Below are positions 2,699-33,036 of a stretch of 64,000 nucleotides of DNA, piece after piece. The notes beneath the pieces were generated by a model. That model was not told the origin of the DNA, did not search any database, and saw nothing but the letters and a program-made list of their open reading frames with translations. Both the position numbers and the translations under genes were made by a program. Origin of the DNA: a virus; the IMG/VR virus record IMGVR_UViG_3300021371_000004, positions 1-64,000 of that record; one strand, 5' to 3'. How positions within the stretch are numbered: the stretch's first letter is position 1; every line of letters starts with the position of its first letter.

Positions 2699-2700
2699 GA

Positions 2701-4369: not shown

Positions 4370-4391
4370 AAGTTTCTCCTTGATTTATTCT

Positions 4392-8235: not shown

Positions 8236-8264
8236 ATTGTAGTTGAACGGGATTGAGATGTCAA
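8236..8264 (-). promoter_or_regulatory. Class B sigma70-type promoter
   Basis: TTGACA-17-TACAAT(AG). Confidence 0.8.
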
Positions 8265-8932
8265 TAATGCGGATAGATCTGCGCGATTACCTTGGCGCAT
8301 GCCCGAGCAACCAGTATGTGCTCCCGCTGTGTACCGTTAGCACCACGCAGTTCGATATAGTGAATCCAAGAGCGCAGAGTACCATTCATGTACATACGGG
8401 AAACAGTATTTCCTTCGGGCAGTACACAACGTGCTTGTTCCTTGGCGATACCATTTTCAATTGCCCAGTTGTATGCCTTCAAAGACTCATCGATGACACC
8501 CTGTTGCATTGCTTTCCAAGTGGCATCAAGTTCAGAACCTTCTTCCAGTTCTACGCTGTTCTGCCTGTTCTTCTCGTCCTGTAGTCGGGCATCACGCAAC
8601 ACAAACATCTCATCGCCCATTTGGTCGATGTTAGCATATCTTTGACTGAACTCCTGAAATGAGAAAGACCTGTGGCGCAGTATTTGTCTTGCGATATCGC
8701 GAGTGGTTTCTATTTCTAGACAAGCAGAGACCATCTCAAACGGACTGAAATGTTTGTGGTCGATTAGGTATGCCAGCAACCTTTCGTTGGTGTCGGTGTT
8801 CATCTGGTTTGCTGGGTTTGATACTCTGGCGCAGTATGCAATCAATTCGTCCAGTTGCTTTGGTTCTGCTATGGCGTGGTCTGCATCTGCCCAGTATGGA
8901 CCCTGCGAATAACTCACAAGATTAACTTTCAT
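8261..8932 (-). CDS. thyX: Flavin-dependent thymidylate synthase
   Basis: HFSPFE, RQILRHRSFSFQEFSQRY signature, ARCVLP, TQREH. Confidence 0.96.
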   Translation of the reverse strand: MKVNLVSYSQGPYWADADHAIAEPKQLDELIAYCARVSNPANQMNTDTNERLLAYLIDHKHFSPFEMVSACLEIETTRDIARQILRHRSFSFQEFSQRYANIDQMGDEMFVLRDARLQDEKNRQNSVELEEGSELDATWKAMQQGVIDESLKAYNWAIENGIAKEQARCVLPEGNTVSRMYMNGTLRSWIHYIELRGANGTQREHILVARACAKVIAQIYPHY

Positions 8933-9164
8933 CGGCGTTTCCTCTCTCATCACATTGAAGGTATTTGTATCGGGATATAGCGTCAATCCTAAATTTCTTC
9001 CATATCTGCATTTGTTTGGTCGTGCCACCCTTTCTACTCAACTCAGTCAGGTGCGTAATTTCCTTCTTCACTTTCTCGCAGTCACTGCTGGTACTGGCAA
9101 ATACTGATTCACACAAAACCATCATGCCATACAAGGCAAGGAAGAACACAATCGCTCTACTCAT
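8922..9164 (-). CDS. Small exported protein
   Basis: Signal-peptide-like N-terminus (MSRAIVFFLALYGMMVL..VFA); Cys pair in mature part. Confidence 0.55.
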   Translation of the reverse strand: MSRAIVFFLALYGMMVLCESVFASTSSDCEKVKKEITHLTELSRKGGTTKQMQIWKKFRIDAISRYKYLQCDERGNADES

Positions 9165-9166
9165 AA

Positions 9167-10087
9167 TCACTCCTCGAATGTGTTGGCATACGCCCATTCC
9201 AAAGCACCACCTGCTTCTCTGGACAGTGGACGGTTCTCATACCAGTTGCCCGTTTCCTGGTCCAGTTCTTGGCACATCTGAGCAATCTGCTCTTGTGTTA
9301 TGGGATACTTGTTCTTGACGGCATTACATGCCACTGCAATCATAATGCGATACATCTGCGAGTACCAACCAGTTTCACTGACCGACTTATACTTCTCTGC
9401 CATCTTGTTCGGAAAGAACGGACAATCACGATACCCAGACCAAGAGTAGTCTGTGTTGGTCAACTGGGACTTGCGATACTCCAGAACCTGCTCACGCATC
9501 TCTGGTGACATACGGTCAAGAAATGAGTTACCCGTTTTCTCGACATACGGGTGTAACAACTTCAACTTGCCTATGGAGACAGGATCCCCCTCTCCGCGAT
9601 AGAAGAAGTGGTTTGACCCCCGATACAATCCAGGAATATAGTACATGCGCGACAGGTCTTTGGTCTGCTCATCACCAAGTTCACCCAAGTATTTCTGCAA
9701 GGCAAACCAGAATGCTTTTATCTCATCTGCCTCTGCGTTTCTGTCTAGGTCAAACACGATACGAAACTTTGGTTGCTTCACTGTGGAAGATGGCGTGGAG
9801 TATATGACAAACCTGTGCTTTATCGCACTCGCGAGTTTCTCCACATCGCCATCAAATTCGTCAACGTCAACTGCTGCCCATCCACCCCAATACTTCACGG
9901 TTGCGTTTGATCTGGTCGTTCCTTTCTCATAGACAGCAGGACTGATCAACTGCGAATTCTCTTTGCCTGACATGGGAGTCTTTGAGAGCATTTCCAACAG
10001 GTTGGTAAACTCTTCCCATGTATCAAACTGCATGGTCTTGTCGGTTATATTATCAAACGGAGATTTGAAAATTGTTAGTTCGTACAT
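9167..10087 (-). CDS. Putative archaeo-eukaryotic primase (AEP/Prim-Pol-like) with helical C-terminal domain
   Basis: AVDVD (DxD), YSTPSS...PKFRIVF, TKDLSRMYYIP; directly downstream of gp43. Confidence 0.6.
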   Translation of the reverse strand: MYELTIFKSPFDNITDKTMQFDTWEEFTNLLEMLSKTPMSGKENSQLISPAVYEKGTTRSNATVKYWGGWAAVDVDEFDGDVEKLASAIKHRFVIYSTPSSTVKQPKFRIVFDLDRNAEADEIKAFWFALQKYLGELGDEQTKDLSRMYYIPGLYRGSNHFFYRGEGDPVSIGKLKLLHPYVEKTGNSFLDRMSPEMREQVLEYRKSQLTNTDYSWSGYRDCPFFPNKMAEKYKSVSETGWYSQMYRIMIAVACNAVKNKYPITQEQIAQMCQELDQETGNWYENRPLSREAGGALEWAYANTFEE

Positions 10088-16003: not shown

Positions 16004-16678
16004 TTATCCTTCGTATGTGGATGATTTTTCGAGAGCGATGTAGTAAACCACATCAACAGTTTTGCAAGTGAACTTGCTGATCAAACGCGAGGAAACCTCG
16101 ACGTCATAGTCGCCAGAGATCAACTTCAGGTTGGCGATGTTCATAACAAAGCAGAAATTATCTGACTTTGCTGTTCCTGGAACCGTGATGTTGAACGCAT
16201 TTGAGGTAGCGTCTGTGTTGTCTACAACAGACAACTCAATACCACCCTCGGTCGCGGTCACAGAAACCTTGTCGTGACCCAGTGCTGCTGCTGCGCTTCG
16301 GATGCGCTTGAGCGTTGCTTCGTCCAAGGTGAACGTGACTTCTGCTTCGGGCATCGGAATATCCTTCGCCGGAGAAGTCAGAATACCAGGGTCACTGTAG
16401 AAATACTTGACGCTAGATCGACCAGAGGAATCGGATACCTTGACTGAAGAGTCGCCGAACTCCAACGTTGGAGCATCAACAAGACCAAGCACTGACAGGA
16501 ACTCATTCAGGTTATAAACCCCGACGGTCTTGTCAAACGACTGGTCAAGATTAGCAACCGCCATGACGTTCTTTGCTTCGGCGATAGTCTTGACGACATT
16601 GCCTTCGTTCATCACGATATTGTCTTGGATGGTAGCAAAGTTCTTCAGTACTGCCATCGTGTTTTCATTTAACTGCAT
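16004..16678 (-). CDS. gp45: Sliding clamp
   Basis: VLKNFATI, VYNLNEFLSVL, NLKLISGDYDV, YYIALE. Confidence 0.95.
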   Translation of the reverse strand: MQLNENTMAVLKNFATIQDNIVMNEGNVVKTIAEAKNVMAVANLDQSFDKTVGVYNLNEFLSVLGLVDAPTLEFGDSSVKVSDSSGRSSVKYFYSDPGILTSPAKDIPMPEAEVTFTLDEATLKRIRSAAAALGHDKVSVTATEGGIELSVVDNTDATSNAFNITVPGTAKSDNFCFVMNIANLKLISGDYDVEVSSRLISKFTCKTVDVVYYIALEKSSTYEG

Positions 16679-18490: not shown

Positions 18491-20767
18491 CGCAACCCGC
18501 TTCACTATATCCTGCAGCAGAGCACGTGCTTGCTTCTGTCCAGTGGAGGTTTTACCGAATGCCCGTTTCAGCGCACCCTTTGCCGAACCTGCTTCCACGT
18601 CCATGCTCGCATTGCTGACTACCATGTTTTTGCTCCACACGAGGTACATCTCATCGTAACCTTCTACATCGAGCACAGCGTGGAAACCTTTCTTCAACAA
18701 CTTGTAGTTTTCTTCTGCAGTATCATAGGAAACGCGCATGCAACGCATCGCACCCATTGCCGCCGATCTGCCTCTTCCGGAAAATACAAAGTATCCGAGT
18801 ACAGAACTGCCAGTGACATCTTTGAGTATTGACAGCAGAGTGCCAGTATATTTTTCGCCGTTTTTCGGAGCAGAGTATGTCTTTTTGCCATAACGGAGAG
18901 TGATATAGTTTCCTGCCATCTTTCGCGGCAGATCCAGCATATAGTCACGATCACCACTTCCGGCAACATACTTGAGACCGTGCGACGCGCCATCGGTCAG
19001 GAATATAGTGTTCATGATATCCAGACGGTGCTGCTTCTTGAACTCCTCGATCTTGGGTATCAACGCAAGTATAGATGAGTCAAGGGGAGTGCCGCCCAAA
19101 TAGAATGGAGTGAATGTCGGTTTCCATCCGCCCGCATGACGAGCGAGGGTACAAGAACCCATCAATGCATGAGAAATAAACAGCATATCAGACTTCGACA
19201 TCTTTTCGTTGAAGATCTCGATCATACGCAAACATCGATCTGGATTAGCAGTCATCAAACCAGTATCTTGTTCTCTCGGTTCTTCTCTCCTTGCAAGGTA
19301 GTCTGTGAAACCATATACACGGAAAGGCACATTGATTCGGCGACAGAAGTGCGTCATAAGCATAGTTTGCTTCACGACATCTGAGAGTATTTCGGTCATA
19401 GAACCCGAGAGGTCGACCACCATTATAAATCCGTGATTCTTGCCTTTCGGGATACTCTTGACCTTCTTGAATATGTCGTCGCTGCAGCGATAGTTGTTCA
19501 TCTTGAGAGTATCAAGGGTGCCAGAGCGAGAGATACGAGTACGGGAAAGTTGTGTTGCTGACTTCTTCATCTCGAATTCCTTCACCATCAGGGAGATAGA
19601 CCGACGAGCACTGCTGTACCATTCGTCATAGACCTCAGCACCTGATTCCAGTGTTCTCTGGTAGTCGCTTTGGTTATCCATATCTTCACGACACATAGCA
19701 ATCACGTCTTTGTAACCAATGAAGTATTGCTCGTGGTTGTCTGCACGGAGTTCGATATTCAAAACATCTATGCGGGAAGCATCACCAGCATACTCACGTT
19801 CTATAGATTCGCGGAGTGCTTCATCGGTGAATGAACGTGGACCATCTTCTTCTTCAGATACACCACCCTCTGTGCCGCCAGTGTTACCCCACTCTTCTTC
19901 GCCATCGTTGTCATCTTCTTCACCATCCTCTTCGGGCGAGGAGGGGGATGATTCGGTGTCAGACTCTTCTTCGCTGTCACCGTCACCGTCACCGTCGGAT
20001 GAAGAGGAATCTTCTTCCTCTTCGCCTTCGGAAGATTCGTGCGTGGACCCAGACTCACCATCTTCGGCGTCATCCGAGTCGGCATCATCTTCGTCTTCGT
20101 CAAAGTCCTCGTGCATAGAGTAACCAGAACCATCGGAATAGTCGCCCGAGTCATCGTCGCCATCTTCAGACTCTGATTCTTCGTTGCGTTCTTCTTCCTC
20201 TTGCTTCTGCTCTTCTTCTTTTTGTTTGCAGAACTCAAACAATTCGTCAGTCACTTCAACAACTTGTTCCCAAGTCTCGAGTTTGGCGATACGGTCGACC
20301 CACTGAACTTCATCTTCAGCGAATGGAGTGTTTGCCGCCATGCCGCACTTGAAGTGAGTGTTGATTCGGTCAATGAGACCAAATTCGGCAGCGTCTTTAG
20401 AACCAAAGAAACCTTTGGACATCAATTGCTTGTATCCAGAAACAAAGTCGCGTCGCAGTCCAGGGTACTTGCGCTGGATCAATTTCTCGATACGCGCATC
20501 CTCGACCACATTCAGAAAAGACTTATAGTTGCCACCGCGTGAACAAACTGCTTCATGCCATCCCTCTTCGGGTGTATAAAGCGCATGCCCCACTTCGTGC
20601 CCAGTCAGCAGTGACTGAACCGCAGCGTCAACGTCTGCCCACAAAGGCAGGGTCAGCACGCGATTCTTCACGTCGAACATAGCAGTAGGAACATTTTCCT
20701 GTACCACCGTTATATTCTCGTTGGCGAGCAGTTTAGCAACGCTGGAGTTTGTATTGTCAGTAATCAT
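18488..20767 (-). CDS. CobT-like protein: zincin-like N-domain, acidic linker, VWA domain
   Basis: HEVGH...NVVEDARIE; long D/E/S tract; MIDAS DLSGS, GGTPL, FLTDG. Confidence 0.88.
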   Translation of the reverse strand: MITDNTNSSVAKLLANENITVVQENVPTAMFDVKNRVLTLPLWADVDAAVQSLLTGHEVGHALYTPEEGWHEAVCSRGGNYKSFLNVVEDARIEKLIQRKYPGLRRDFVSGYKQLMSKGFFGSKDAAEFGLIDRINTHFKCGMAANTPFAEDEVQWVDRIAKLETWEQVVEVTDELFEFCKQKEEEQKQEEEERNEESESEDGDDDSGDYSDGSGYSMHEDFDEDEDDADSDDAEDGESGSTHESSEGEEEEDSSSSDGDGDGDSEEESDTESSPSSPEEDGEEDDNDGEEEWGNTGGTEGGVSEEEDGPRSFTDEALRESIEREYAGDASRIDVLNIELRADNHEQYFIGYKDVIAMCREDMDNQSDYQRTLESGAEVYDEWYSSARRSISLMVKEFEMKKSATQLSRTRISRSGTLDTLKMNNYRCSDDIFKKVKSIPKGKNHGFIMVVDLSGSMTEILSDVVKQTMLMTHFCRRINVPFRVYGFTDYLARREEPREQDTGLMTANPDRCLRMIEIFNEKMSKSDMLFISHALMGSCTLARHAGGWKPTFTPFYLGGTPLDSSILALIPKIEEFKKQHRLDIMNTIFLTDGASHGLKYVAGSGDRDYMLDLPRKMAGNYITLRYGKKTYSAPKNGEKYTGTLLSILKDVTGSSVLGYFVFSGRGRSAAMGAMRCMRVSYDTAEENYKLLKKGFHAVLDVEGYDEMYLVWSKNMVVSNASMDVEAGSAKGALKRAFGKTSTGQKQARALLQDIVKRVA

Positions 20768-20791
20768 GTCTTCTCCTCAACTTGAACATCT

Positions 20792-20852
20792 ATTATCGTA
20801 CATTTTCAGTACAAGAACAAGTTCGTAAAAGTTCAATAAAATCAACAACTTA
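20792..20852 (-). promoter_or_regulatory. Class A promoter with IHF site
   Basis: TTGTTC-17-GATAAT; AATCAACAACTTA at 20840-20852, 19 bp from the -35. Confidence 0.75.
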
Positions 20853-21110
20853 GGAGTACTTCTTGTGGGAGGTGATGTCCCACTTCTCAACTACTGGCAG
20901 ACCATATGCATCCTCGTCCACAGCAATATAGGCAACCGTCTTGAGGATACGCGCATACCGCACACCATCGAATGTATGAAGTACATGGGGAAAATCCCAC
21001 GCGCCTGTCATGTCATCGGTGTTCGCCGAATACTCATGGAAACCGCGCACGTCCTTCTCAACGAAAGAACCGAGCAGACTGCTATAGTCATCGATCTTAC
21101 ACATACCCAT
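20850..21110 (-). CDS. Hypothetical early protein
   Basis: GAGGAG SD behind class A promoter; RYARILKTVAYIAVDED..G.PVVEKW. Confidence 0.75.
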   Translation of the reverse strand: MGMCKIDDYSSLLGSFVEKDVRGFHEYSANTDDMTGAWDFPHVLHTFDGVRYARILKTVAYIAVDEDAYGLPVVEKWDITSHKKYS

Positions 21111-21140
21111 AATCTGTTGTTCTCCTCAATCAGAACACCT

Positions 21141-21201
21141 ATTATGGAGCAATTGAGGCACAAACACAAGTTGTGAAAAACTGAATAGAATCAGGAACTT
21201 A
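21141..21201 (-). promoter_or_regulatory. Class A promoter, near-duplicate of the 2287-2347 element
   Basis: TTGTGT-17-CATAAT; variant site AATCAGGAACTTA at the same 19-bp offset. Confidence 0.7.
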
Positions 21202-21745
21202 CGCAACCCAGCATATAATCGACAACGATACGTGTGTCATCTGGGGTTTCGTGGGGGAATTGTACCACACATCCCTTTTCAGTACCAAACAGCGTATGCT
21301 GGTCACCGAATTTTTCGAGGATGTTGGTGCACTTGGTGCGGGTTGTCTGGATGAATTTCTCAGACTGTTCAGAACCACGCTGCTTATATCTGCGCTCACG
21401 TTCAGCGTCTGATACGGTCAGGTGGATTATAGTGAGGTCATCACCTGCTGCTGTGAAGAAACCTGCGTTGTTGAGTCGGTCACCTTCGCCAAATATAACT
21501 TCATCCGGTTTGGTTGAGATCCACTCAACTGCTTTTGGTGCTACTGCCATTGAAAGCAGGTCTGTGCCTGAGAAAGTTTTCTCGGGGACATACTTACCAA
21601 GAACTCGAACATTGCCTGATACATGGGTGTCAAGCAGGTCTGTTACTCGCTCCTGTTTCCAGTTCGGACTAAATTCTTCCATGAATTGCTTCATGATGGT
21701 AGACTTACCCGTTCCAGGAATACCCATGATGTATATCAGTTTCAT
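21191..21745 (-). CDS. P-loop nucleotide kinase, putative 5-hydroxymethylpyrimidine DNA kinase (5-HMUDK-like)
   Basis: GIPGTGKST, LGKY..FSGTDLLS, GEGDRL, R..QRGS.QSE; close to an amino acid:DNA transferase. Confidence 0.8.
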   Translation of the reverse strand: MKLIYIMGIPGTGKSTIMKQFMEEFSPNWKQERVTDLLDTHVSGNVRVLGKYVPEKTFSGTDLLSMAVAPKAVEWISTKPDEVIFGEGDRLNNAGFFTAAGDDLTIIHLTVSDAERERRYKQRGSEQSEKFIQTTRTKCTNILEKFGDQHTLFGTEKGCVVQFPHETPDDTRIVVDYMLGCVSS

Positions 21746-22035
21746 TGTAAAAAGGACTCCAAAGTTCCTGCGGCGGGGTAGTCTGCCTTTGACACATATC
21801 CTTTTCTGTTATATCCCTTTTCCAGTGCGCGTGCAGTAGTATCATCGTTCCAACAATTACAGCAGTACCCTTCGTGACCTTTGTACTGTTCGCTGATCAG
21901 GAATTCATTTCCACAGGTGCGACAGTCAAACGTGGTCAACATTTCCGTTCCATATAAAGTCATGTGCTTTACCTCAGATGGGGGTGGTACTTCTCTCGAC
22001 TGACGACCGATAACTTGGGAATTCTTACGTTTCAT
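21742..22035 (-). CDS. Zn-finger protein with C-terminal clamp-binding-like peptide
   Basis: CRTC...CCNC; ends GTLESFLQ; GGAG SD before MKRKNS. Confidence 0.6.
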   Translation of the reverse strand: MKRKNSQVIGRQSREVPPPSEVKHMTLYGTEMLTTFDCRTCGNEFLISEQYKGHEGYCCNCWNDDTTARALEKGYNRKGYVSKADYPAAGTLESFLQ

Positions 22036-22061
22036 ATAGGTTCTCCACAATTTGATATCCT

Positions 22062-22090
22062 ATTCTAACCGAAACAGAATAGGGTGTCAA
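22062..22090 (-). promoter_or_regulatory. Class B promoter
   Basis: TTGACA-17-TAGAAT(AG). Confidence 0.8.
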
Positions 22091-22097
22091 CAACTCA

Positions 22098-23090
22098 TTA
22101 TGCAAAGAATGCCTCGAGTCCACCAGCGTTTCGGTCTACTGGTTCAAAGTTGCCTGTATCCAAAAACAGGTTATATAATTCAGGGTCAATCAGGTCTGTC
22201 AACCATTTCTCTTCCAGACACTCTCGCCTTGCTTGCCACAAGGGTTCCCAGTCTATACCTTCCCACTTATCTGCCTGAACTTTCTTGATCTCTTCTGCCT
22301 GTCGGTCAATGTAGAAACCAAGGTAGCGACCACGACTCCGGCGAAACAACTTCTTGAAGGAGCACAGACTGGTTTCCATAGAAAAGAAGTCTGCCTTGTC
22401 GGCAACATGCGGGTAACGTAACTTGACCTCTTGTAGTATCTCCCTGCCATTTGCTTCGAGAAAGTCTATCTGAGTTGCGTCGAGTTTCACTTTGTTCTTC
22501 TTGGAGTCAACCCACTCAGGTTTGTCCATGGCATAACACATACCGTTACGGTGCGACTTTGACCCACTGCGGTCATGGAACCAGAGACTATCAACGTCAA
22601 CCTTTATGCCACATGTCTGCTTGAGTGTCTGTATATAAAACCAAGAGGTGTAGCGACCAAACTTGTGCCAAGAGTTGACAGTGTCCCACAAAGAGTAGAA
22701 GTCCTTGACAGGGTCACCAACAAAGTTGGCAGTGATTGCTTCATGCTGTGTACGACCACCAACGAAGTCTCTATACGATTCAAACTGTTGGGGCAGGTGA
22801 CCCTTGTTCCACTTGGTGTCTGTCTGGTAGCGTAGGCGTTTGTAGTTGGCGTTGTTCCAAGAACGCAAACGCTCCAGACCCACCAACTCCATATCTGGAA
22901 ATTCGTTCCAAACAACGTATGAGGTTGGCCAGTAATAGGTAGTGCCATAGATCCAAGAGATCCATAGACGCTGTTCTGTGTTATACTCAAACCGATCAAA
23001 GAAGTAATTCTGTAGGTATAGGGATGGGTCACAGTCCTCTATTTCAAGACCACGACCAAACCACTGAGTGAATATCTCCTTATTGTTCAT
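22098..23090 (-). CDS. Amino acid:DNA transferase (aGPT-pyrophosphorylase clade 2-like)
   Basis: D.DP.LY, EQRLW..WIYG.TY, YQTDTKW, HhH-like FGRYTSWFY.Q.L, SHRNG, METSLCSFKK, RYLGFYIDRQ. Confidence 0.8.
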   Translation of the reverse strand: MNNKEIFTQWFGRGLEIEDCDPSLYLQNYFFDRFEYNTEQRLWISWIYGTTYYWPTSYVVWNEFPDMELVGLERLRSWNNANYKRLRYQTDTKWNKGHLPQQFESYRDFVGGRTQHEAITANFVGDPVKDFYSLWDTVNSWHKFGRYTSWFYIQTLKQTCGIKVDVDSLWFHDRSGSKSHRNGMCYAMDKPEWVDSKKNKVKLDATQIDFLEANGREILQEVKLRYPHVADKADFFSMETSLCSFKKLFRRSRGRYLGFYIDRQAEEIKKVQADKWEGIDWEPLWQARRECLEEKWLTDLIDPELYNLFLDTGNFEPVDRNAGGLEAFFA

Positions 23091-23737
23091 AGAAACGCAT
23101 CCAAAGAGAAGTGTGTCGGTTCAAATAGTGTTTCGCGCATCCAGTATTCTCCCACTGACTCAATGGCAGTCTCGACCTTTTCGGTTTTCTTGACACCAAA
23201 GTTGTGGGACTCAAGGGATTCTTCCTTCAGTTTTTCTGCTACCTTGCTTGGCGGGATAGCAACAGAAGGATCCTTCAATGCAAGTTCACGAAACGTCAAC
23301 TGCTCATGTTGGTTCGGGAATATAGGCACGTCACAACGCAGAGAACCAGATGGGTCAACTGCCCAGAAGATGGTGCCATTACGTTTGTGCCATGTAACAG
23401 AAGATGGGGTACAGGACATCTTGAGTCTCTGCATGCCTTGGTTATGCGCCTCTTCCATCACCTTCCAGTATACTTCGGAAGCATAACCTTGCCCCTCCTC
23501 TCCTTCGAGGGTTACTATCTCATACAGGTTGGCATACTTTGACCGCGCACTGAATGTGATGAACACCAGAGCAACCGGATCAATTCCACCTTCCATCAAA
23601 GCAAACGGTGGTTGCTTCACATAGTTCTTGAACCGAAACCAGAGGTTGTGTGAAGACTTCAGGAACTTCGTGTTTGTTCCTTCTGGTTGGGAAGCAATGA
23701 GCGTTTCCACTTCTTCTTTGTTAAGTCGCTTTAGCAT
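23087..23737 (-). CDS. GNAT-family acyltransferase
   Basis: NLYEIVT..GEEGQGYAS (motif A)...SVTWHKRNG (motif B); ends SLDAFL. Confidence 0.7.
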   Translation of the reverse strand: MLKRLNKEEVETLIASQPEGTNTKFLKSSHNLWFRFKNYVKQPPFALMEGGIDPVALVFITFSARSKYANLYEIVTLEGEEGQGYASEVYWKVMEEAHNQGMQRLKMSCTPSSVTWHKRNGTIFWAVDPSGSLRCDVPIFPNQHEQLTFRELALKDPSVAIPPSKVAEKLKEESLESHNFGVKKTEKVETAIESVGEYWMRETLFEPTHFSLDAFL

Positions 23738-24408
23738 GGTTGCAGATCTGCCAGTTCTGGGTCAAAGTATGTTCTATCCATATGTAGACCGAACCCACCG
23801 AAAGTATATTTGACAAGAGGTTCGCAACTGGAAACGTTATCAGTAATTCCTGCTCTTCGGAGAATATCTCTCGTAGAAGCAAACACCATTCCGTTTTTCC
23901 GGTTCGCCATCCAAAGTGGACGTTCATGATTACGAAACGCAGACAGTTCTCCGCCATCGATAGCAACAACTGCCATGCTTCGGTCACGGTACTTTTCGAG
24001 AGGAGTATCTCCTGCTTCGATACAACGCAGTATCAACTCAGAATCGTTCAGTGTTTCTGTTTCATATTCCCATATGTCAGGGTCTTGAGAAATAACTCCG
24101 TTGTGGGCAATTGCTGTTTCTCTGCCCTGAAACGGTTGGTTGTATCGCAGGTCAGAAGTTGAGTATCGGATATGCCCAATCATGGTCATCTTCTGTGTAG
24201 CAGGGTCAACAAACTCACGAGGGTCATACTTCTCGATAAATTCATAAGCAGCAATTGGTTCTTTGTGCGTATGTAGTTTGCCGCAGGAAAGGTATGTGAC
24301 TCCCGTGGCATGCTTACCACGAATCATACTTTCCCTGAACAAACGCTTGACCATCTCGAGGTCTTCCGCGTAGACTTCTTCTAGGTGTACACCAATTACT
24401 CCGCACAT
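23731..24408 (-). CDS. Stand-alone class II (Ntn) glutamine amidotransferase domain
   Basis: MCGVIG N-terminal Cys, RGKHATG, GHIRYST, QPF, AHNGVI, DSELI, RN.ERPLW. Confidence 0.88.
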   Translation of the reverse strand: MCGVIGVHLEEVYAEDLEMVKRLFRESMIRGKHATGVTYLSCGKLHTHKEPIAAYEFIEKYDPREFVDPATQKMTMIGHIRYSTSDLRYNQPFQGRETAIAHNGVISQDPDIWEYETETLNDSELILRCIEAGDTPLEKYRDRSMAVVAIDGGELSAFRNHERPLWMANRKNGMVFASTRDILRRAGITDNVSSCEPLVKYTFGGFGLHMDRTYFDPELADLQPC

Positions 24409-24584
24409 GGTATTTCTATCCATTTGTATATGAATTTGGGATACACAAATAACGCCTTACGATAAGTGTATGTCCCTGTGTGTAAGTGTATGCCATTCTT
24501 CGTGAGAGGATTTGAACCAATGGCGATCTCTTTGTAGAAAGAGATTGTGCCGTTTTTATTCTCATGGTACCAGATCTGCTTCAC
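24396..24584 (-). CDS. Hypothetical protein
   Basis: 62-aa coupled ORF inside the cluster. Confidence 0.45.
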   Translation of the reverse strand: MKQIWYHENKNGTISFYKEIAIGSNPLTKNGIHLHTGTYTYRKALFVYPKFIYKWIEIPCAE

Positions 24585-24853
24585 TTTTCTTCTTCCAAAT
24601 CATGGACGTGGAGTGCAATCAAACCGTAGTGGAGAACTTTCAGCAAGTCCTTTCGGTTCTTACCCTCTTTCTTACCGTACCGTTGGGTGTACTTGATGAC
24701 GTTTCCTAAACAGAAACCCTCTCCATGACCCGCATCGATAACAAACTCGGTTGTCTGGACTTTGTCCTGCGAGTAGTGTTGTCCATAAGTAATGTCAACA
24801 TAATCTCGGAGTTCTTTGATCAGGGCATCTTCGTTATATTTGTAATCGATCAT
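24581..24853 (-). CDS. DUF3310-like protein (often linked to nucleotide-metabolism genes)
   Basis: TYGQHYS, GFCLGNVIKY.QRYGKKEG....DLLK.LHY. Confidence 0.8.
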   Translation of the reverse strand: MIDYKYNEDALIKELRDYVDITYGQHYSQDKVQTTEFVIDAGHGEGFCLGNVIKYTQRYGKKEGKNRKDLLKVLHYGLIALHVHDLEEEK

Positions 24854-24860
24854 ATCATTC

Positions 24861-26258
24861 CTATCCAAAAAATTCATCAAGAGTACCAGCAACATCGAAC
24901 GACTCAGGGTGATACTTGCGAGTCATCTCCTCACCACCGTTGTCTGTCAACCAGTCGTACCATTCATTGTCGTCCCACATGCTCGGTGATACACCGTTCC
25001 AGTATGGTCGCCACAGTTTGTGTTCTTCGTTCAGTCGACGCGAGTCAACGTATGCTCGGCGCAGATGCTCATATTCCCATGTACCCAACTTCAACATATC
25101 TTCTCGGAAGTAGAATACAAGGGACATACGCATCAGGTCATCTTCGCCAGAGTCTGGTGCTTCAATTGGGGTGTTGGCGTGGATGACGCGCATGTTGTCA
25201 ACCAACAGTAAGTCGCCTGGGCGGATATTGATAGCAGCGCGAACTTCTGGGCAGACCAACATGCCGCCTTTCCAGTCTTTCTTACCATCACTTATCACAG
25301 TCAGGTTGCTGAAACCTTCGTTCAACGAACCAGAGTCACGGTGACATGCCATACGTGCATTGCGTTCCTTTGTTGTCGTGTTTACCGTAATGGTAGTGAA
25401 CGTTGTGTCCTCTCCAATCAGAAACTTTGGATCCATTCGGTCAGCGCATTTCTTCTGACGACCATAGCGCACAGGCAGTAGTTCGGCAAAGGTTGCGTCT
25501 AATCGACGAGCAAATGGATAGCATTTCTCAAATACTTCGCGATTATGATCGGTGAAAGCAGTAGCACGACCATAAGGTATGCGAGGATAACGACCATAGA
25601 AACCAGCAATGCCAGACCATATTGCGGTAGCGTACATAGTATCGGAAATAAAGTCCTTGCGCAGAAGTTGTACATATGCCTTTGCTTCCTCGAGAGTCAT
25701 AACTCGCAGTTTGTTCAGTAGTATTGGAAAGAAATCAGTGTAAGTCCCAAACTCTGGTTCAACTTTGGTGCGCAACCAAACGCCACCACGGTTTTCATCG
25801 TCGTTGGGGATAGCAGCAAACTCGGCGAGTGGATCAGAACCGTCGATGTTGGGCGGTTGCCCTTCTTCAAACCAACGCAGAACGTTCAGTTGGTATTGCG
25901 TTACCCAGTCACGGTTGCCTTGAGATTCTTCTCTTGGACCCGCTGCCATGCCTCTGTTGTTTGACTCAATTGCTGCGTCAAACAGACCAGCGTATGCACC
26001 GTCTTGTTCTGCTTGAGTGAATACGTTTTTACGGAATTTAAACGCGATACGGTCTTCAGAAAGTTCCTCGTCTTCAACGCCCATGGAAGGCATATAGAAG
26101 TCCGCATCGGAGTCAACGACGATGTCATAGTGACTTTCGTCTGGATATTGCCCCTTGAGTGCTTCTGAATCTTCGAGAAACAAGGCGACATACACGTCCT
26201 GCCCCTCTGAACCAGTGCTCTTTTGCCAAGAACGACCGCCTATTTGTACTGTTTCCAT
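24861..26258 (-). CDS. TET/JBP-family 2OG-Fe(II) 5-methylpyrimidine dioxygenase
   Basis: TFTTITVN, ACHRD (HxD), GGMLVCPE....IRPGDLLLVD, HANTPI, RMSLVFYFRE; ends TLDEFFG. Confidence 0.88.
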   Translation of the reverse strand: METVQIGGRSWQKSTGSEGQDVYVALFLEDSEALKGQYPDESHYDIVVDSDADFYMPSMGVEDEELSEDRIAFKFRKNVFTQAEQDGAYAGLFDAAIESNNRGMAAGPREESQGNRDWVTQYQLNVLRWFEEGQPPNIDGSDPLAEFAAIPNDDENRGGVWLRTKVEPEFGTYTDFFPILLNKLRVMTLEEAKAYVQLLRKDFISDTMYATAIWSGIAGFYGRYPRIPYGRATAFTDHNREVFEKCYPFARRLDATFAELLPVRYGRQKKCADRMDPKFLIGEDTTFTTITVNTTTKERNARMACHRDSGSLNEGFSNLTVISDGKKDWKGGMLVCPEVRAAINIRPGDLLLVDNMRVIHANTPIEAPDSGEDDLMRMSLVFYFREDMLKLGTWEYEHLRRAYVDSRRLNEEHKLWRPYWNGVSPSMWDDNEWYDWLTDNGGEEMTRKYHPESFDVAGTLDEFFG

Positions 26259-26282
26259 GCGTTTTCCTCAATTTATGCTTCT

Positions 26283-26311
26283 ATTCTACAGGAACCGGAT
26301 TGGGATGTCAA
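26283..26311 (-). promoter_or_regulatory. Class B promoter driving the modification operon
   Basis: TTGACA-17-TAGAAT(AG), 25 bp upstream of the TET/JBP start. Confidence 0.8.
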
Positions 26312-26733: not shown

Positions 26734-28452
26734 TCAGTTTTTGATTTGTGAGAAGTTTTTAACTTTGGTGAATTCTATCTTTGACTCAAACTTGCCTTCG
26801 AGTATCTCGCCCTTGTGAGATATAATGAAGACGTTAGTGTCTTCACCAAGGGTGTGGATAATCTTCAGGAGGTTATCGATACCTGCTTCGTCGAGAGAAG
26901 AATCAAAGGTCTCATCGAGTATGAGGAGGTTGGTGCTGATGCTGTTCTTCATCTTGGCAACCTGCCTCCAAGTGAATAGCAGTGCCAAGTCAATACGTTG
27001 CTTCTCTCCTTCAGAGAAAGAATCGTATGAGAAAGAATCTCTATGGCGTGAGCGAATCGTTTCTTCAAACTTTTCGTCAAGGTCAAAGTGGACATAGAAG
27101 TCCAAGATGGAGAGGTACTGGTTGACCATCTGGTTAATCACAGGCAGATACTGCTTGATAACCTTGGTCTTGATTCCGCTGTCTTTCAACATCTCTGATA
27201 TGACGGTGTTGTACGCAGATTGGTCGTTCATTGTAGAACGATCGGCGACCAGTTCATGGTATTCTTTCATGAGTTCATCGTATTCGGCATTCGCCGCTGC
27301 CATGTCAGACTGATTGCTACTCAGGGAAGAAATTTCTTCTTGTGTTTTCTTTATGTTTGCAGTGTAAGTTGCCATGGTACGGACATTGCTGTTTATCTCG
27401 CTGAGCAGAACCTGAACCTCTTCCATCTTAGATTCGAATTCAGAGATCTTGCTGTTGGTTGAATCTTTTTCGGCAACAAGTTCTACTTTGGCAGTTTGCA
27501 ACTCTGTTGCCGCTGCCCTTGCCTGTTCGAGTTTTTGTTCACGGAATCCCTCAGCAATGGTTTGGGTGCAGGTTGGACACTCTTCATTATTCTCGTAGAA
27601 TTTGGCTTCCTTCACGAGGTTTTTTATCTTCGTGTTGAACTCTGCCTCAAACCCATTCAACCTCTCCAGATTACCTTGTTGTGCTTTCAGGAGAGGGGAA
27701 ATTTCCTCAGTTACCCCTTCCGCAACTTTTTGGTTCTTGGCATTCTCATCAACGAGTTTGTTTATCTCTGCTGTGGTTTCTTCGATGAAATCTTCTTTCT
27801 GTTTCTGTACATCGTGGTTCAACTTGGAAACGTCGCGGATATACTTCTTCTGCGCGTCAACTTTAGTTTCGTTCATCGCGATTTGGTGGTACACGGTATT
27901 CAGTTTCTCTTTCAGTACCGCATTCTTCTCCTTGAGCAATGCATTCATCTTGGAGAAAACGCCAATGTCCAGAAGGTCTTCGATGACATCCCGTCTGTTG
28001 AGCGCGGACAACTGCATGAATGGTATGAACGAGGAAGAACCAAGCACAACAACTTGGTGGAAGGTCTTGTGGTTGAGTTTCAGGATATTCTGTTCAAGAA
28101 CCTTCTGGTACTCCTTGTTATGGGAGTTCTGGTTTATCATCGTGCCGTCGACATATATCTCAAACTTGATCGGTTTGATGCCGCGCACAACTTTATAGTT
28201 CTTGCTTCCCACGGAAAACTCAACCTCAACAACCATCCCCTTGTCGTTGATCGAGTTTACCAACTGTGCTTTCTTGATACTGCGGTGGGACTTGCCGAAC
28301 AAACCATAGGATATGGCATCAAGCATGGTGGACTTACCCGAACCATTCTGACCTACAACAAGGGTGTGCTTGCTTCTGTCAAGTTGTATCTCTGTCCAGT
28401 TGTCGCCTGTAGAGAGAAAGTTTTTGTATCGGACTGTCTTAAATATAATCAA
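26734..28452 (-). CDS. gp46: Recombination endonuclease ATPase subunit (Rad50-like)
   Basis: GQNGSGKS, CPTC zinc hook, FSEGEK, LILDETFDSSLD, IISH. Confidence 0.96.
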   Translation of the reverse strand: MIIFKTVRYKNFLSTGDNWTEIQLDRSKHTLVVGQNGSGKSTMLDAISYGLFGKSHRSIKKAQLVNSINDKGMVVEVEFSVGSKNYKVVRGIKPIKFEIYVDGTMINQNSHNKEYQKVLEQNILKLNHKTFHQVVVLGSSSFIPFMQLSALNRRDVIEDLLDIGVFSKMNALLKEKNAVLKEKLNTVYHQIAMNETKVDAQKKYIRDVSKLNHDVQKQKEDFIEETTAEINKLVDENAKNQKVAEGVTEEISPLLKAQQGNLERLNGFEAEFNTKIKNLVKEAKFYENNEECPTCTQTIAEGFREQKLEQARAAATELQTAKVELVAEKDSTNSKISEFESKMEEVQVLLSEINSNVRTMATYTANIKKTQEEISSLSSNQSDMAAANAEYDELMKEYHELVADRSTMNDQSAYNTVISEMLKDSGIKTKVIKQYLPVINQMVNQYLSILDFYVHFDLDEKFEETIRSRHRDSFSYDSFSEGEKQRIDLALLFTWRQVAKMKNSISTNLLILDETFDSSLDEAGIDNLLKIIHTLGEDTNVFIISHKGEILEGKFESKIEFTKVKNFSQIKN

Positions 28453-29524: not shown

Positions 29525-30112
29525 TTATTCCTCGAAGAAATTAGAGAGGTCTGAGTCGACACGCACAGTGCGTTTCGTCTTCATAACCTTCTTGTGCTCT
29601 TTGACCTTTTCGTCTTTCTCCTTGACGTCATCTATCCTTCTTCGCAGGTTATCGACAAAGGACTGAACTGCCTTGGCGACCTGCGGGTCTTCATCGGCAT
29701 CAATCATGAACTCTTCGAGTCCTGACTCTGCCAGATAATTCATTTTAACTTCCTGCTGCCTTTGTTCTTTCTTGATGCGCCGAAGGAATGCATACCAAGA
29801 GATCTGGGTGAAGTACCCAAACGCATTTGGTTTACCCTTGCGTGTTGCTGCTTCAACGTCATAGTTCTTGCATGCACGGAGGCAATTCTCAACAGCATCC
29901 ATTACCATCTCTTCACGGTAGGTGTAACGAACAAAGTTGGATTTGTGAGAAAGACCCTCTGCGATTTTGAGAAAACACTCGGCAACGTAGGTGGGCATGA
30001 TGGGCGGCACAACCCCATCATTGTCTGCTTTATTGACAGCGGTGACATGGTCAACAACTGCCTGTGAGAACTGTGCATTGTTGACGTAATGCGGACGTTC
30101 ACTTGGTTTCAT
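29525..30112 (-). CDS. gp55: Late-transcription sigma factor
   Basis: HYVNN, FLKIAEGLS..NF..YTYREEM..DA.ENC, NAFGYFTQI...AFLRRI.KE. Confidence 0.95.
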   Translation of the reverse strand: MKPSERPHYVNNAQFSQAVVDHVTAVNKADNDGVVPPIMPTYVAECFLKIAEGLSHKSNFVRYTYREEMVMDAVENCLRACKNYDVEAATRKGKPNAFGYFTQISWYAFLRRIKKEQRQQEVKMNYLAESGLEEFMIDADEDPQVAKAVQSFVDNLRRRIDDVKEKDEKVKEHKKVMKTKRTVRVDSDLSNFFEE

Positions 30113-30145
30113 AATAAATTCCAGTGTTCCTTGATTAGAAACTCT

Positions 30146-30174
30146 ATTCTATACGAACAGGATCGAAATGTCAA
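30146..30174 (-). promoter_or_regulatory. Class B promoter for gp55-47-46
   Basis: TTGACA-17-TAGAAT(AG). Confidence 0.8.
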
Positions 30175-30584
30175 TCTTCGGTCAATAGTTTGGGGGATGA
30201 AGGAAATGACAGAACATTGCTGCTCGAGTCCTCTGTTTCTTCTCCAGTTGTAGTAGATGCATCAGTGAGCATCTCTTGTATGCTAACAAGGGAGTTGGTG
30301 TACTGTTCTATCACCTTCTTACTCGGAGCATTGACAGTTACTATGGATGATGGGTTGATGGAAATCAATACGTCCAACCGCTCGGGGTATGAGATAAATG
30401 GTCGTAAGATATAGTACGAGGTCTTCAAAGATTCGTCATAATCCGGATCTTCGAGTTCCACAGCAACCATTTCAAGTGCGCAGTTGACACTAAACGTAGA
30501 GTCATTTTCGTTGAACTTCTGTGCGATAATTTCTTGTCCAGTTACAAGTTTGACTTGTACAATCTTTTCGTTTTCGACGTTCAT
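30171..30584 (-). CDS. Hypothetical protein downstream of uvsW
   Basis: VKLVTGQEII pattern; usual position in T4-like genomes. Confidence 0.75.
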   Translation of the reverse strand: MNVENEKIVQVKLVTGQEIIAQKFNENDSTFSVNCALEMVAVELEDPDYDESLKTSYYILRPFISYPERLDVLISINPSSIVTVNAPSKKVIEQYTNSLVSIQEMLTDASTTTGEETEDSSSNVLSFPSSPKLLTED

Positions 30585-32044
30585 AGTTTCACCTTATGTA
30601 TTTCTAAATTGAATTTTTCAGTGTTGTACATCTTAACCCTCTCCCCTGCGTGCTTTAGGGTGAAGTTCTTTTTCGACTTAATGGATAAGTCGTCCGACAA
30701 GTCAAACAATAGTGTACCCTGCCCATTATCTGATTTGCGTAATCCCCTACCAATGGACTGCAAAACCTTCACCTGCGATTTAGAAGGCGAGGCAAATACA
30801 ATGTTGTGTAGGTTCTTTATATTGATACCCGTGCTGAACGTTCCCAGGGAAGCAACGATGATGGCACCATCACTACGCTCAACGATTCCTCGAATCGCCT
30901 CACGGTCAGAAACATCAGTACCACCGTGCACATAGAAGACAGTATCGCTCTTTTCCTTGATCATTCCGTAGAGGACTTCTCCATGCTTCTCCACGAACTG
31001 ATACAGCACAAGGGTGTTACCTGTTTGCGTGAGTGCTATGTTTCGTATCAACTTGTTTCTGGGTTCATACCCAACAAGGAAGTCGACTTCTTCCTGATAT
31101 GTTCGGTCTTTGTTTCTTTGTCTTTCCTCTTTTGGGTAGTCCAATAGTAGCATATCGATGTGCAGTTCAGCGAGTGTGCCACTGTCCTGTAGATCCCTTG
31201 TGAACGTGACCCTCTTTGTCGGACCAAACAACCCTTCCAAAACCAGTTTGTTTACCTGTGTGCCATCCAAGGTTCCCGTTGTACCAAACCGATATTCTGC
31301 TTCGGTGCACTTATTCATCATGGTAGTGAGTGATTTTGCTTTGAACAGGTGACACTCATCGCCAAATACGCATCCAAAGGCATCGAACCAGTCCTTTCCA
31401 AGACGATAAACAGACTGCCACGTGGTAACGATAACCCGCTTCTTCGTTATCTTATCCTTGCCGGAATAGATCTTGTGGACTTCGGTTTCTACGTCCATCC
31501 CATAGTCGGAAAAGTCCTTGTACATCTGCTCTACGAGGGAAGTGGTTGGGACGACAACAAGGACAGACTTTTCATAACTGTCCAGATACCAACGCATGAG
31601 ATTGTAGATGATAAATGACTTACCAGAACCAGTTGGTGAAAGAAGCAAGCAACGTTTGTGTTCTATGGCGTGAGTGATTGCATCATACTGGTAGTCACGT
31701 GGAGCAAATGGCATGCCCCAAATTGCCTGAGAAGAAACTAGGTGTTGGTGGTTAACGGTGTTTCTTTGGTTGGGCAGTCCGTAATCACTGTGTTCCATCT
31801 GTAAGTGGTAGTGTCTGTCTGCCGCGAACCTACAGAGTTTTGTATAGAGTCCTACATTCAGTTCTGAAGTAACGCCGGAAAACAGGCGGATTCTTCCGTC
31901 CCATTTGCGCTGCTTGAAGGCGGGCATCCACTTATAACCTGGAGCAAAAAACGCAAAGTATTCGTTCAACTCCGCTCGGATTCCTGCATCACAATCAACG
32001 TACATCATAGAATGGTTTAACATCTTAACCGTAAGTTTTCCCAT
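30581..32044 (-). CDS. uvsW: SF2 DNA helicase
   Basis: PRDYQ, SPTGSGKS, DECH, GTTGT, QSIGRGLR. Confidence 0.96.
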   Translation of the reverse strand: MGKLTVKMLNHSMMYVDCDAGIRAELNEYFAFFAPGYKWMPAFKQRKWDGRIRLFSGVTSELNVGLYTKLCRFAADRHYHLQMEHSDYGLPNQRNTVNHQHLVSSQAIWGMPFAPRDYQYDAITHAIEHKRCLLLSPTGSGKSFIIYNLMRWYLDSYEKSVLVVVPTTSLVEQMYKDFSDYGMDVETEVHKIYSGKDKITKKRVIVTTWQSVYRLGKDWFDAFGCVFGDECHLFKAKSLTTMMNKCTEAEYRFGTTGTLDGTQVNKLVLEGLFGPTKRVTFTRDLQDSGTLAELHIDMLLLDYPKEERQRNKDRTYQEEVDFLVGYEPRNKLIRNIALTQTGNTLVLYQFVEKHGEVLYGMIKEKSDTVFYVHGGTDVSDREAIRGIVERSDGAIIVASLGTFSTGINIKNLHNIVFASPSKSQVKVLQSIGRGLRKSDNGQGTLLFDLSDDLSIKSKKNFTLKHAGERVKMYNTEKFNLEIHKVKL

Positions 32045-32076
32045 AATATATCCACAAGTATTATTCTTGTAGGTAT

Positions 32077-32517
32077 TTAGGCACCTGCTTCAAACTGCTT
32101 CCAGCGAATTGCATTACCTATCGTCTGGTGACGCCACTTCAAGGTGTCGATTATCTCTTTAAGTGCTTCTAGCATGGTTTTGAAGTATACAACCTTTGCT
32201 TCGCTCTGTTGTATCTCTGGGTCGCTGTCATAGTAGTATGACAGGTCACCCTTCATTATCTTCAAACCATCGAATGGGTCGGGGTTCCAACCAAGCGCAG
32301 AAACTTCTTCTTGGGACAACTTGCCGTTGTACCAGAGAAACTTGTTCTTGAGAAGTATTTGCTGTTTCTCTTCTGCTCGTTTCAGAAGCAATTTGGTTTG
32401 TATATGATAACCCAAATACTTCGCGTGCAACTTGGGAGTGTCACGGGAAGCTTCATCAAGGTTATGTCCAATCTCACAGTCTTCGCCCCACTGGGCAAGG
32501 ATATCATTTAAGTCCAT
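32077..32517 (-). CDS. uvsY: Recombination mediator
   Basis: PKLHAKYL, WYNGK, R.QTI.NAI.W..FEAG. Confidence 0.92.
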   Translation of the reverse strand: MDLNDILAQWGEDCEIGHNLDEASRDTPKLHAKYLGYHIQTKLLLKRAEEKQQILLKNKFLWYNGKLSQEEVSALGWNPDPFDGLKIMKGDLSYYYDSDPEIQQSEAKVVYFKTMLEALKEIIDTLKWRHQTIGNAIRWKQFEAGA

Positions 32518-32520
32518 AAA

Positions 32521-33036
32521 TTATTTAATTATCTCAAAGTAGGAAAATCGAAAGGATACTGGAAAGGCGACATATTCAACTGATTGGTTCTGTGCTTCAA
32601 AAGTTATATCACCGACAGCAGTGGGGAGAGCATCAACGTACTTGAACTTGACGCTAGCGTTGTTATGACTGGATAGTGCCACGATGGTTATATCCGCATA
32701 GTTTGGGGTGGTTGACGTTTTACCAGAAAAATTGTCCCTTTTCGTGATCATGTCTTCATTCACGGTTCTCAGCAACCAGTCGTATACCTCTGTATATGAG
32801 TTCATATCTTCGTCGAGAAGAACCTGCATCGACAGATCACTATACTCGATTGAACTTCCAGGCATTGGAACACTGGCGATTCTGGAAAACGGTGTTTCCA
32901 CCGCAGGGCAAGTTGCGCCTGGATGGTTAATTGACTGAACAAAGAATTCAAGGTTGCCGTAGTTTTTACGGTCAATAAGAACCCTGAACCCTGTGGGTTG
33001 AAAATAGTTTATATTAGTACCTATACTGCTCGACAT
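32521..33036 (-). CDS. gp3: Tail completion / tube terminator protein
   Basis: NYFQPTGF, FFVQSIN.PG, LDEDMNSY.E.YDW, F.FSYFEI. Confidence 0.9.
   Translation of the reverse strand: MSSSIGTNINYFQPTGFRVLIDRKNYGNLEFFVQSINHPGATCPAVETPFSRIASVPMPGSSIEYSDLSMQVLLDEDMNSYTEVYDWLLRTVNEDMITKRDNFSGKTSTTPNYADITIVALSSHNNASVKFKYVDALPTAVGDITFEAQNQSVEYVAFPVSFRFSYFEIIK

Follow-up and report, generated by a model that had tools for sequence, protein, structure and literature searches.

In this study, we describe a gene cluster on the minus strand of a viral DNA stretch (64,000 nucleotides (nt), positions 1 to 64,000 of the IMG/VR record IMGVR_UViG_3300021371_000004; hereafter, the window), which is best explained overall, with a probability that we put at about 0.7, as a module by which a T4-like phage hypermodifies thymidine after replication. 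The cluster (21191–26258) consists of co-oriented genes lying between those for gp46 and gp45, and encodes a TET/JBP 5-methylpyrimidine dioxygenase (5mYOX), a glutamine amidotransferase (GATase), a GNAT-type N-acyltransferase, an amino acid:DNA transferase (AADT), and a P-loop kinase for 5-hydroxymethyldeoxyuridine (5-hmdU) in DNA. What appears to be new, judging from the protein sequences, is that successive enzymes of this pathway end in the kind of peptide by which a T4-type polymerase binds its sliding clamp. An amidotransferase in the place of the flavin-dependent lyase of phage PaMx11 likewise looks new, and suggests direct glutamine-dependent amination of the modified base followed by acetylation.

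Gene content of the modification cluster

The window belongs to a 99,048-base virus record that is estimated to be 55% complete and whose genes lie nearly all on the minus strand; it was compared with a 153,883-base relative (85% complete) in which the 5mYOX gene is 91–93% identical. Searching IMG/VR with an alignment of the GNAT returned 304 stretches, from which 80 loci were fetched as the basis of the locus counts given here. The five-gene core recurs throughout these loci (GNAT in 79, GATase in 78, AADT and 5mYOX in 74 each, and kinase in 62), in two gene orders, with identities down to approximately 45%, and always within T4-like replication regions; a megablast search of the cluster against cultured phages found no match. 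In the record itself, the surrounding replication block comprises a gp41-like helicase, UvsX, ThyX, an archaeo-eukaryotic primase (AEP)-type primase-like gene, gp43, gp44, and gp45, together with a CobS-like/CobT-like pair, gp46, gp47, gp55, and UvsW. Neighboring genes of the cluster overlap by 4–13 nt, the sole exception being a 62-nt gap preceding an open reading frame (ORF) for a putative zinc-ribbon protein. These ORF coordinates and the families of the flanking genes agree with an initial annotation of the window, which had described a co-oriented and largely translationally coupled cluster between gp46 and gp45, and all of its family assignments held in hidden Markov model searches, those of the 5mYOX and the GNAT in fold searches as well.

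The 5mYOX gene (24861–26258, minus strand) encodes a long-form enzyme of 465 residues that matches the Pfam family Tet_JBP (PF12851) at an E-value of 5.7e-16 (58.6 bits against a cut-off of 34.9). Its predicted iron triad (His306-x-Asp308 and His360) and 2-oxoglutarate-binding Arg377 are invariant in an alignment of 19 homologues, and the AlphaFold2 (AF2) model (predicted local distance difference test score, pLDDT, of 84.3) is a TET-type double-stranded beta-helix fold, for which Foldseek returned CcTet, TET2, and NgTET1 as the best matches (E 2.5e-10 to 1e-7), with CMD1 also among the top. The N-terminus is longer by approximately 200 residues, and a low-confidence linker (residues 456–463) precedes the C-terminal tail. 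Relatives in cultured phages, annotated as 'SNF2 DNA repair protein' or as hypothetical, are found in C48C1 (69% identity), DLP_6 (49%), and Cr30 (38–39%), and the DLP_6 gene occupies the same slot between gp46 and gp45.

The GATase is a stand-alone class II (N-terminal nucleophile, Ntn) domain encoded at 23731–24408 on the minus strand, within an ORF spanning 23731–24423, and is recognized by Pfam GATase_6 (1.2e-08; 35.5 bits against a cut-off of 27) and phrog_4736 (8.8e-23). It most likely begins with Met-Cys-Gly at 24408, where the ORF of the relative also starts, and this is the form required of an Ntn enzyme; beyond this start, it contains HIRYST, HNG, and NDSE, which we take to be the free-glutamine-binding motifs of class II enzymes. 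The GNAT (216 residues; 23087–23737, minus strand) is only a borderline match to Pfam Acetyltransf_1 (3.8e-4; 21.1 bits against a cut-off of 20.7), and many of its homologues carry PF00583. Its AF2 model (pLDDT 94.1) matched SpeG, GCN5, and other amine N-acetyltransferases in Foldseek (E 4e-06), and an acyl-CoA motif (EGxGYA) is present; a profile of the GNAT gave no more than a match to an acetyltransferase at E 0.0097. Since tblastn of the GNAT against cultured phages matched nothing, PaMx11 gp48 is not closely related to it.

The AADT (22098–23090, minus strand), a member of what was formerly called aGPT-Pplase clade 2, matches Pfam ADDT (PF18724) at 2.6e-23 (83.4 bits against a cut-off of 26.2), and its nearest cultured relatives, at approximately 31% identity, are in ViI-like phages. 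Searches of PDB sequences gave no match for either the AADT or the GATase. All of the 18 AADT homologues compared, those of Cr30 and the ViI type among them, have Cys243, and nearly all have Asp173; the former, as the putative catalytic residue, fits the mechanism of PaMx11 gp46, in which the AADT acts via a catalytic cysteine (Cys247) and phosphate release (PMC11472151). The last gene of the cluster (21191–21745, minus strand) encodes a P-loop 5-hmdU DNA kinase of the 5-HMUDK type, matching Pfam Ploopntkinase3 (PF18751) at 4.4e-19 (69.2 bits against a cut-off of 27) and containing the Walker A motif GIPGTGKST. No flavin adenine dinucleotide (FAD) enzyme was found in the module or in the 80 related loci.

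The source of the hydroxymethyl group sets this module apart from pathways that start with a modified nucleotide. A ThyX gene is present (8261–9028, minus strand; Pfam Thy1, 1.9e-40), and neither the 99-kb record nor the 85%-complete relative contains a match to a ThyA-like hydroxymethylase (Thymidylat_synt), a C5-methyltransferase (DNA_methylase), or ParB (PF02195, ParB_N); for these reasons, oxidation of thymine on DNA stands as the reading of the first step. The initial annotation had noted ThyX without a hydroxymethylase, which holds across the 99-kb record, and the search for ThyA-like and C5-methyltransferase genes now extends to the relative; as far as two incomplete genomes can show, its proposal that the hydroxymethyl handle is produced on DNA by the TET/JBP enzyme agrees with these results. 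It went too far in presenting the pathway as a candidate new one. Contigs that have no deoxyuridine monophosphate (dUMP) hydroxymethylase and in which a TET_JBP gene adjoins the kinase and AADT have been described, with 5-hydroxymethyluracil (5hmU) proposed to arise in situ; the kinase, AADT, and acetyltransferase were described as working on DNA, and amidotransferases and acetyltransferases were listed among the partners, the function of the former being unassigned (Lee 2021, PMC8989533). Phage 5mYOXs have further been characterized as post-replicative, sequence-preferring T-dioxygenases, with those of clade C1 consistently associated with GATases, P-loop kinases, and AADTs; in the same study, the rationale of post-replicative hypermodification was called a mystery, and it was proposed that ParB, a cytidine triphosphate-dependent clamp, may stabilize 5mYOX on DNA (O'Toole 2026, PMC13229309). 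The observation is thus confirmed and its interpretation is right in outline, and the pathway concept is already published; since this type of pathway is known, the value of the present locus lies in the clamp peptide and the amidotransferase step.

Polymerase-type tails on the modification enzymes

The 5mYOX ends in AGTLDEFFG, the AADT in AGGLEAFFA, the GNAT in FSLDAFL, and the zinc-ribbon protein (97 residues with four Cys, recognized from sequence; 21742–22035, minus strand, within an ORF spanning 21742–22050 whose likely start is at 22035) in AGTLESFLQ. All four follow the pattern L-[DE]-x-F-[FL], as does gp43, the family B DNA polymerase of the same phage (10098–12623, minus strand; Pfam DNA_pol_B, 8.4e-32), which ends in SVSLEDFFG; the late sigma factor gp55 (29525–30112, minus strand; phrog_234, 4.6e-50) ends in DLSNFFEE. 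In T4, gp43 ends in SLDFLFG and gp55 in SLDFLYEAND, and these acidic-hydrophobic C-termini are established and interchangeable epitopes for binding the sliding clamp gp45 (PMC2988020). Because their ends match those of gp43 and gp55 from this phage, two proteins that bind gp45 in T4, the tailed 5mYOX, AADT, GNAT, and zinc-ribbon protein probably dock on the gp45 (16004–16678, minus strand; Pfam gp45-slide_C, 1.5e-12) of newly replicated DNA.

The pattern is rare outside this set of proteins. When defined strictly as L[DE]x[FY][FLYMI] within the last 10 residues, it occurs in five of the 781 ORFs of the 99-kb record, and these are exactly gp43, the 5mYOX, the AADT, the GNAT, and the zinc-ribbon ORF; when only the 108 likely genes are counted, four were observed against 0.19 expected. 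In the 153-kb relative, the same definition retrieves gp43, the three enzymes, one 96-residue ORF, and one spurious ORF. A repeat at the DNA level was considered and rejected, as the codons of the tails differ, which places the likeness, and the selection acting on it, at the level of the peptide. Across the related loci, the tail is retained in 72 of 74 5mYOXs, all eight gp43 proteins, 46 of 79 GNATs, and 35 of 74 AADTs, and is found in none of the 26 gp46, 78 GATase, and 20 gp45 proteins, the CobS-like protein being without it too. Long-form 5mYOX homologues carry it in 15 of 18 cases, and a looser pattern is present in 107 of 120 AADT and 96 of 120 GNAT database homologues. The peptide is conserved while the preceding linker varies, and it follows the polymerase of its own genome: in 15 genomes for which the gp43 and 5mYOX tails could be paired, 12 pairs are FF/FF, two (Cr30 and a marine contig, G004) are LF/LF, and one is FF/FL.

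Comparable endings occur in phages with other modification chemistries. Salmonella phage SFP10, which is ViI-like, has a polymerase ending in VNLLSMMGKKG, an AADT (gp247 type) ending in VNLMSLLKR, and an HMUD2 kinase (gp243 type) ending in VSLLGLLSKG (locus L016, positions 1–624, 2120–3025, and 3782–5017); since polymerase, kinase, and AADT share a similar ending, the rule seems to hold in an experimentally characterized hypermodification system. The TET-associated glycosyltransferase (TAGT) of DLP_6 ends in LSDLSSFFN, and a Cr30 protein that resembles a TAGT only weakly (PF20691 at E 0.00085, with 19.7 bits where the cut-off is 27.5) ends in DLSKLF, both like the gp43 tail of their own phage. 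For the present phage, a complex of the gp45 trimer with residues 416–465 of the 5mYOX was predicted at a score of 0.43, the best of three controls scoring 0.02; runs shared at least 33% of their contacts, and the pLDDT of the partner was at least 34. Of 80 solved complexes, 58 attained the pass mark of this prediction, as did two of 110 mismatched pairs, and passes at or below 0.60 count as weak, a range that held seven of the 80 solved complexes and both mismatches. The replicative clamp is not mentioned in the pathway papers of Lee 2018, Lee 2021, and O'Toole 2026, and Burke 2021 reports only a clamp-loader gene near some clusters. The closest precedent is a DNA-modifying enzyme of T4, the alpha-glucosyltransferase, which co-purifies with gp45 (PMC13216743).

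Other endings were noted alongside these. The 96-residue ORF of the relative (144569–144859) ends in NSLEGFM and has no PHROG match; as a guess, it could be the counterpart of gp33. The GATase has a C-terminal signature of its own (window 23731–23760): D-[LY]-Q stands among the final nine residues in 39 of the 40 homologues that reach the C-terminus (loci L017–L095), differs from the clamp-type tail, and might serve to dock a partner. GDPLY is the ending of several short-form 5mYOXs and may be another type of docking motif at the C-terminus, and one short-form relative (P0172, ending in RGDPLYAKK; locus L101, 2449–4033) has a ParB_N match directly upstream at 21.9 bits, below the cut-off of 26.3. 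A linkage of the GDPLY-ending enzymes to ParB was judged too thin, with a weak ParB_N match in only two of 20 records.

Proposed pathway and alternative explanations

In the pathway that we propose, ThyX would supply ordinary thymidine monophosphate (dTMP), the 5mYOX would oxidize thymine in DNA to 5-hydroxymethyluracil, and the P-loop kinase would phosphorylate the 5-hydroxymethyl base to 5-phosphomethyldeoxyuridine (5-phosphomethyl-dU), whereupon the conserved cysteine of the AADT would attack C6, the phosphate would leave, and an amine would be added; these steps are modeled on characterized homologues. The amine could be ammonia freed from glutamine by the Ntn amidotransferase, giving 5-aminomethyl-dU by a PurF-like displacement, and the GNAT would then N-acylate this base to yield a product at or near the 5-acetylaminomethyl-dU (5-AcNmdU) of PaMx11, with neither a glycine adduct nor a flavin lyase. 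We offer this amination and acylation, which the gene content suggests, only as a tentative proposal. It is the simplest reading, because enzymes that reshape an amino acid adduct are missing, yet an amidotransferase and a GNAT always adjoin the AADT; that the AADT is the ammonia-taking partner is likewise suggested by their co-inheritance. Finally, the gp45 clamp would bring the pathway to fresh DNA and may activate it, as ParB does for other 5mYOXs; by analogy, a tail for the replicative clamp in a lineage without ParB may be the natural counterpart of ParB.

Several points weigh against this interpretation. The assignments of the substrate base (T or 5-methylcytosine, 5mC), of the nucleophile, and of the acyl donor are predictions; with the record 55% and the relative 85% complete, a hydroxymethylase or methyltransferase may sit elsewhere in the genome; and some ParB-less 5mYOXs of clade C1 were inactive in E. 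coli (O'Toole 2026, PMC13229309). An objection to the amination step is that every AADT characterized so far uses amino acids or putrescine rather than ammonia (PMC8989533) and that the closest cultured relatives of the present one, at the 31% identity noted above, are the serine transferases of ViI-type phages. Accordingly, in a pathway unchanged as far as 5-phosphomethyl-dU, the AADT might instead add a free amino acid (serine or glycine) or putrescine, with the GNAT acylating the free amine of the adduct and the Ntn domain either removing a gamma-glutamyl or amide group as an amidohydrolase or serving elsewhere; this course would end in a new base derived from an amino acid instead of (acetyl)aminomethyl-dU. 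The listing of amidotransferases among partners of unassigned function (Lee 2021, PMC8989533) is compatible with such a role. We nevertheless regard this course as unlikely, given that the module has no pyridoxal phosphate (PLP) decarboxylase, radical S-adenosylmethionine enzyme, flavin lyase, or ATP-dependent amide synthetase, and that the GATase is strictly co-inherited with the AADT and GNAT (78, 74, and 79 of 80 loci). The GATase also retains what we take to be the class II motifs for binding free glutamine. A change of substrate, by which the dioxygenase would act on 5mC produced by a methyltransferase of the host, or by one encoded in a part of the phage genome yet to be sequenced, and so lead to cytosine hypermodification, is very improbable. 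Phage 5mYOXs of clades A and B are indeed 5mC dioxygenases, some on contigs with P-loop kinases (PMC8256090), and the genome records are incomplete; against this, no DNA_methylase match was found in the 99 kb or in the 85%-complete relative, a C5-methyltransferase accompanies only 6% of 5mYOX pathways, the rest being read as T-dioxygenases (PMC13229309), and the kinase and AADT families have been characterized on 5-hmdU (PMC8989533).

The role assigned to the tail has to be weighed in the same way. Binding of the tails to gp45 is so far predicted only, the score of the predicted complex is weak, and solved clamp-peptide complexes could have been remembered by the model. The kinase and GATase are without a tail, as are the AADT and kinase of Cr30, and the alpha-glucosyltransferase of T4 co-purifies with gp45 (PMC13216743) and has no such C-terminal tail. 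Furthermore, a T4_baseplate family protein ends in GLSDFF both in the record (80772–81482) and in the relative (90022–90771); the loose form of the motif is therefore not specific, and this ending is probably due to chance, though it is conserved. One could thus suppose that the tail binds another replisome or packaging protein, or is a signal for degradation or localization, and that the enzymes find DNA by themselves. We consider this a poor fit, as the peptide coincides with the endings of gp43 and gp55 in this phage, which in T4 have been proven to be epitopes for gp45, as it tracks the gp43 tail in distant lineages, ViI-like phages among them, and as it follows a low-confidence linker, in the manner of clamp peptides. 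Docking on gp45 is hence the explanation that we prefer for the tails.

Related systems, accessory genes, and biological significance

The closest known systems are the metavirome 5mYOX clusters (clade C1 of O'Toole 2026; sequences 22–25 in Figure 2 of Lee 2021), in which a TET/JBP enzyme likewise replaces the dUMP hydroxymethylase to oxidize thymine after replication and adjoins a P-loop 5-hmdU DNA kinase, an AADT, and a glutamine amidotransferase, with no C5-methyltransferase nearby. The present phage differs in having no ParB match in the record or the relative, and in the size of its 5mYOX: the ParB-independent enzymes tested in PMC13229309 have approximately 290–300 residues, whereas this one has 465 and a polymerase-type tail. 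With the PaMx11 pathway for 5-AcNmdU (gp46 AADT, gp47 FAD lyase, gp48 acetyltransferase, and gp49 kinase), the module has the kinase, AADT, and acetyltransferase in common, and it probably leads to a chemically similar kind of end product; here, however, 5-hmdU would come from an on-DNA dioxygenase instead of a hydroxymethylase, and an Ntn amidotransferase takes the place of the FAD lyase. The pathway of ViI and other kutterviruses to 5-(2-aminoethoxy)methyldeoxyuridine (5-NeOmdU), which employs the serine:DNA transferase gp247, the kinases gp243 and gp67, and the decarboxylase gp226, has the nearest cultured AADTs, and in SFP10 the AADT and HMUD2 kinase end like the phage's own polymerase; it differs in relying on a dUMP hydroxymethylase that acts before replication and a PLP decarboxylase, and in having no 5mYOX, GATase, or GNAT. 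The T4 ligands of gp45 (gp43, gp55, gp33, and the alpha-glucosyltransferase) resemble the tailed enzymes in placing an acidic-hydrophobic extreme C-terminus after a flexible linker, whereas in T4 the alpha-glucosyltransferase is untailed and here several successive enzymes of one pathway are tailed.

Base J synthesis (JBP1/2 and a glucosyltransferase) and the phage TAGTs also begin with oxidation of thymine on DNA by a TET/JBP enzyme, whereas the present module would follow a kinase and transferase route and has no glycosyltransferase. The 5mYOX relatives of DLP_6, Cr30, and C48C1 adjoin TAGT or sugar-nucleotide genes. In DLP_6 (locus L003, 6027–10317), the slot between gp46 and gp45 is filled by the tailed TAGT, a sugar nucleotidyltransferase, and the 5mYOX, which suggests that this phage makes a base-J-like glycosylated 5hmU. 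Cr30 (locus L004, 8995–17888) has a mixed module, with the 5mYOX near a dATP/dGTP diphosphohydrolase-N protein, a 409-residue AADT, the TAGT-like protein, and a P-loop kinase. In C48C1 (locus L001, 9001–12448), the 5mYOX is followed by a 344-residue protein and then by a UDP-galactopyranose mutase, a gene order that hints at a galactofuranose-type modification.

Besides the core enzymes, the cluster holds three smaller ORFs on the minus strand. The DUF3310 protein (24581–24895; Pfam DUF3310, 5.6e-13), whose true start is probably Met15 at 24853, occurs in only 20 of the 80 related loci and at variable positions. Being patchy and variable in position, and with the literature offering no function, it was rejected as a pathway enzyme and is treated as an accessory gene outside the core; its family had been correctly named in the initial annotation, which had counted it as part of the cluster. 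A 62-residue ORF (24396–24584) has no match in Pfam or PHROG and is conserved, at 48–65% identity, only in five close relatives. The third is the zinc-ribbon ORF, which has no PHROG family and no Pfam match above cut-off (the best being DUF7564, E 0.0046, 17.8 bits against a cut-off of 32.2). It is missing between the AADT and kinase in two close relatives (L007 and L009), so that the ORF and its own promoter-like site look like an inserted, optional cassette; distant tailed copies lie within the modules of L022 and L029. This promoter-like site (TTGACA-17-TAGAAT, an 11/12 match to the consensus; 22062–22090, minus strand) is the second of its kind. The first (26283–26311, minus strand) has the same hexamers and spacing and lies upstream of the 5mYOX gene, where the cluster had been said to be headed by its own promoter; the 11/12 site is there, as a consensus match only, and the total number of such sites is not above that in shuffled sequences.

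On one side, the cluster is flanked by gp46 (26734–28452, minus strand; SMC_N/AAA_23); on the other, an 86-residue ORF, a CobT-like gene, a CobS-like gene, and a 169-residue ORF separate it from gp45. The CobS-like and CobT-like genes were considered as members of the module and rejected, because they lie on different sides of it in different lineages. A 92-nt direct repeat (71% identity; 20761–20852 and 21110–21201) lies directly behind the kinase gene, ahead of the genes that follow. A 306-residue protein encoded downstream of gp43 (9167–10087) belongs to a DNA primase family of PHROG (phrog_9765, 9.7e-42) and matches no Pfam family. In another relative (G006, 29830–32650), gp43 appears as two open frames of 485 and 375 residues with a gap between them, and the gene may be split or interrupted there.

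Both the clamp peptide and the amidotransferase step are open to bench work, since cultured carriers exist (Caulobacter phage Cr30, Stenotrophomonas phage DLP_6, and the ViI-like phages). The GATase–GNAT–AADT trio points to a shorter, glutamine-driven route to aminomethyluracil, and direct amination, if true, would be an enzymatic reaction that has yet to be described on DNA. The tail provides a sequence signature with which new DNA-modifying enzymes could be sought in T4-like and ViI-like genomes, namely any protein that ends like the polymerase. With somewhat less than even confidence, we suggest that clamp tethering is a general organizing principle of post-replicative hypermodification in phages with T4-type replisomes, where enzymes with folds unrelated to one another (5mYOX, AADT, GNAT, TAGT, and HMUD2 kinase) would each bear the clamp peptide of their own polymerase, gp45 acting both as a moving assembly line and as a DNA-loading activator akin to ParB, in combination with direct amination of 5-phosphomethyl-dU by glutamine-derived ammonia. 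Clamp tethering, if true, would give a reason for the inactivity of some ParB-less 5mYOXs in E. coli, where the cognate loaded clamp is missing, and would explain both how post-replicative modification matches a fast replisome and how it is restricted to phage DNA.

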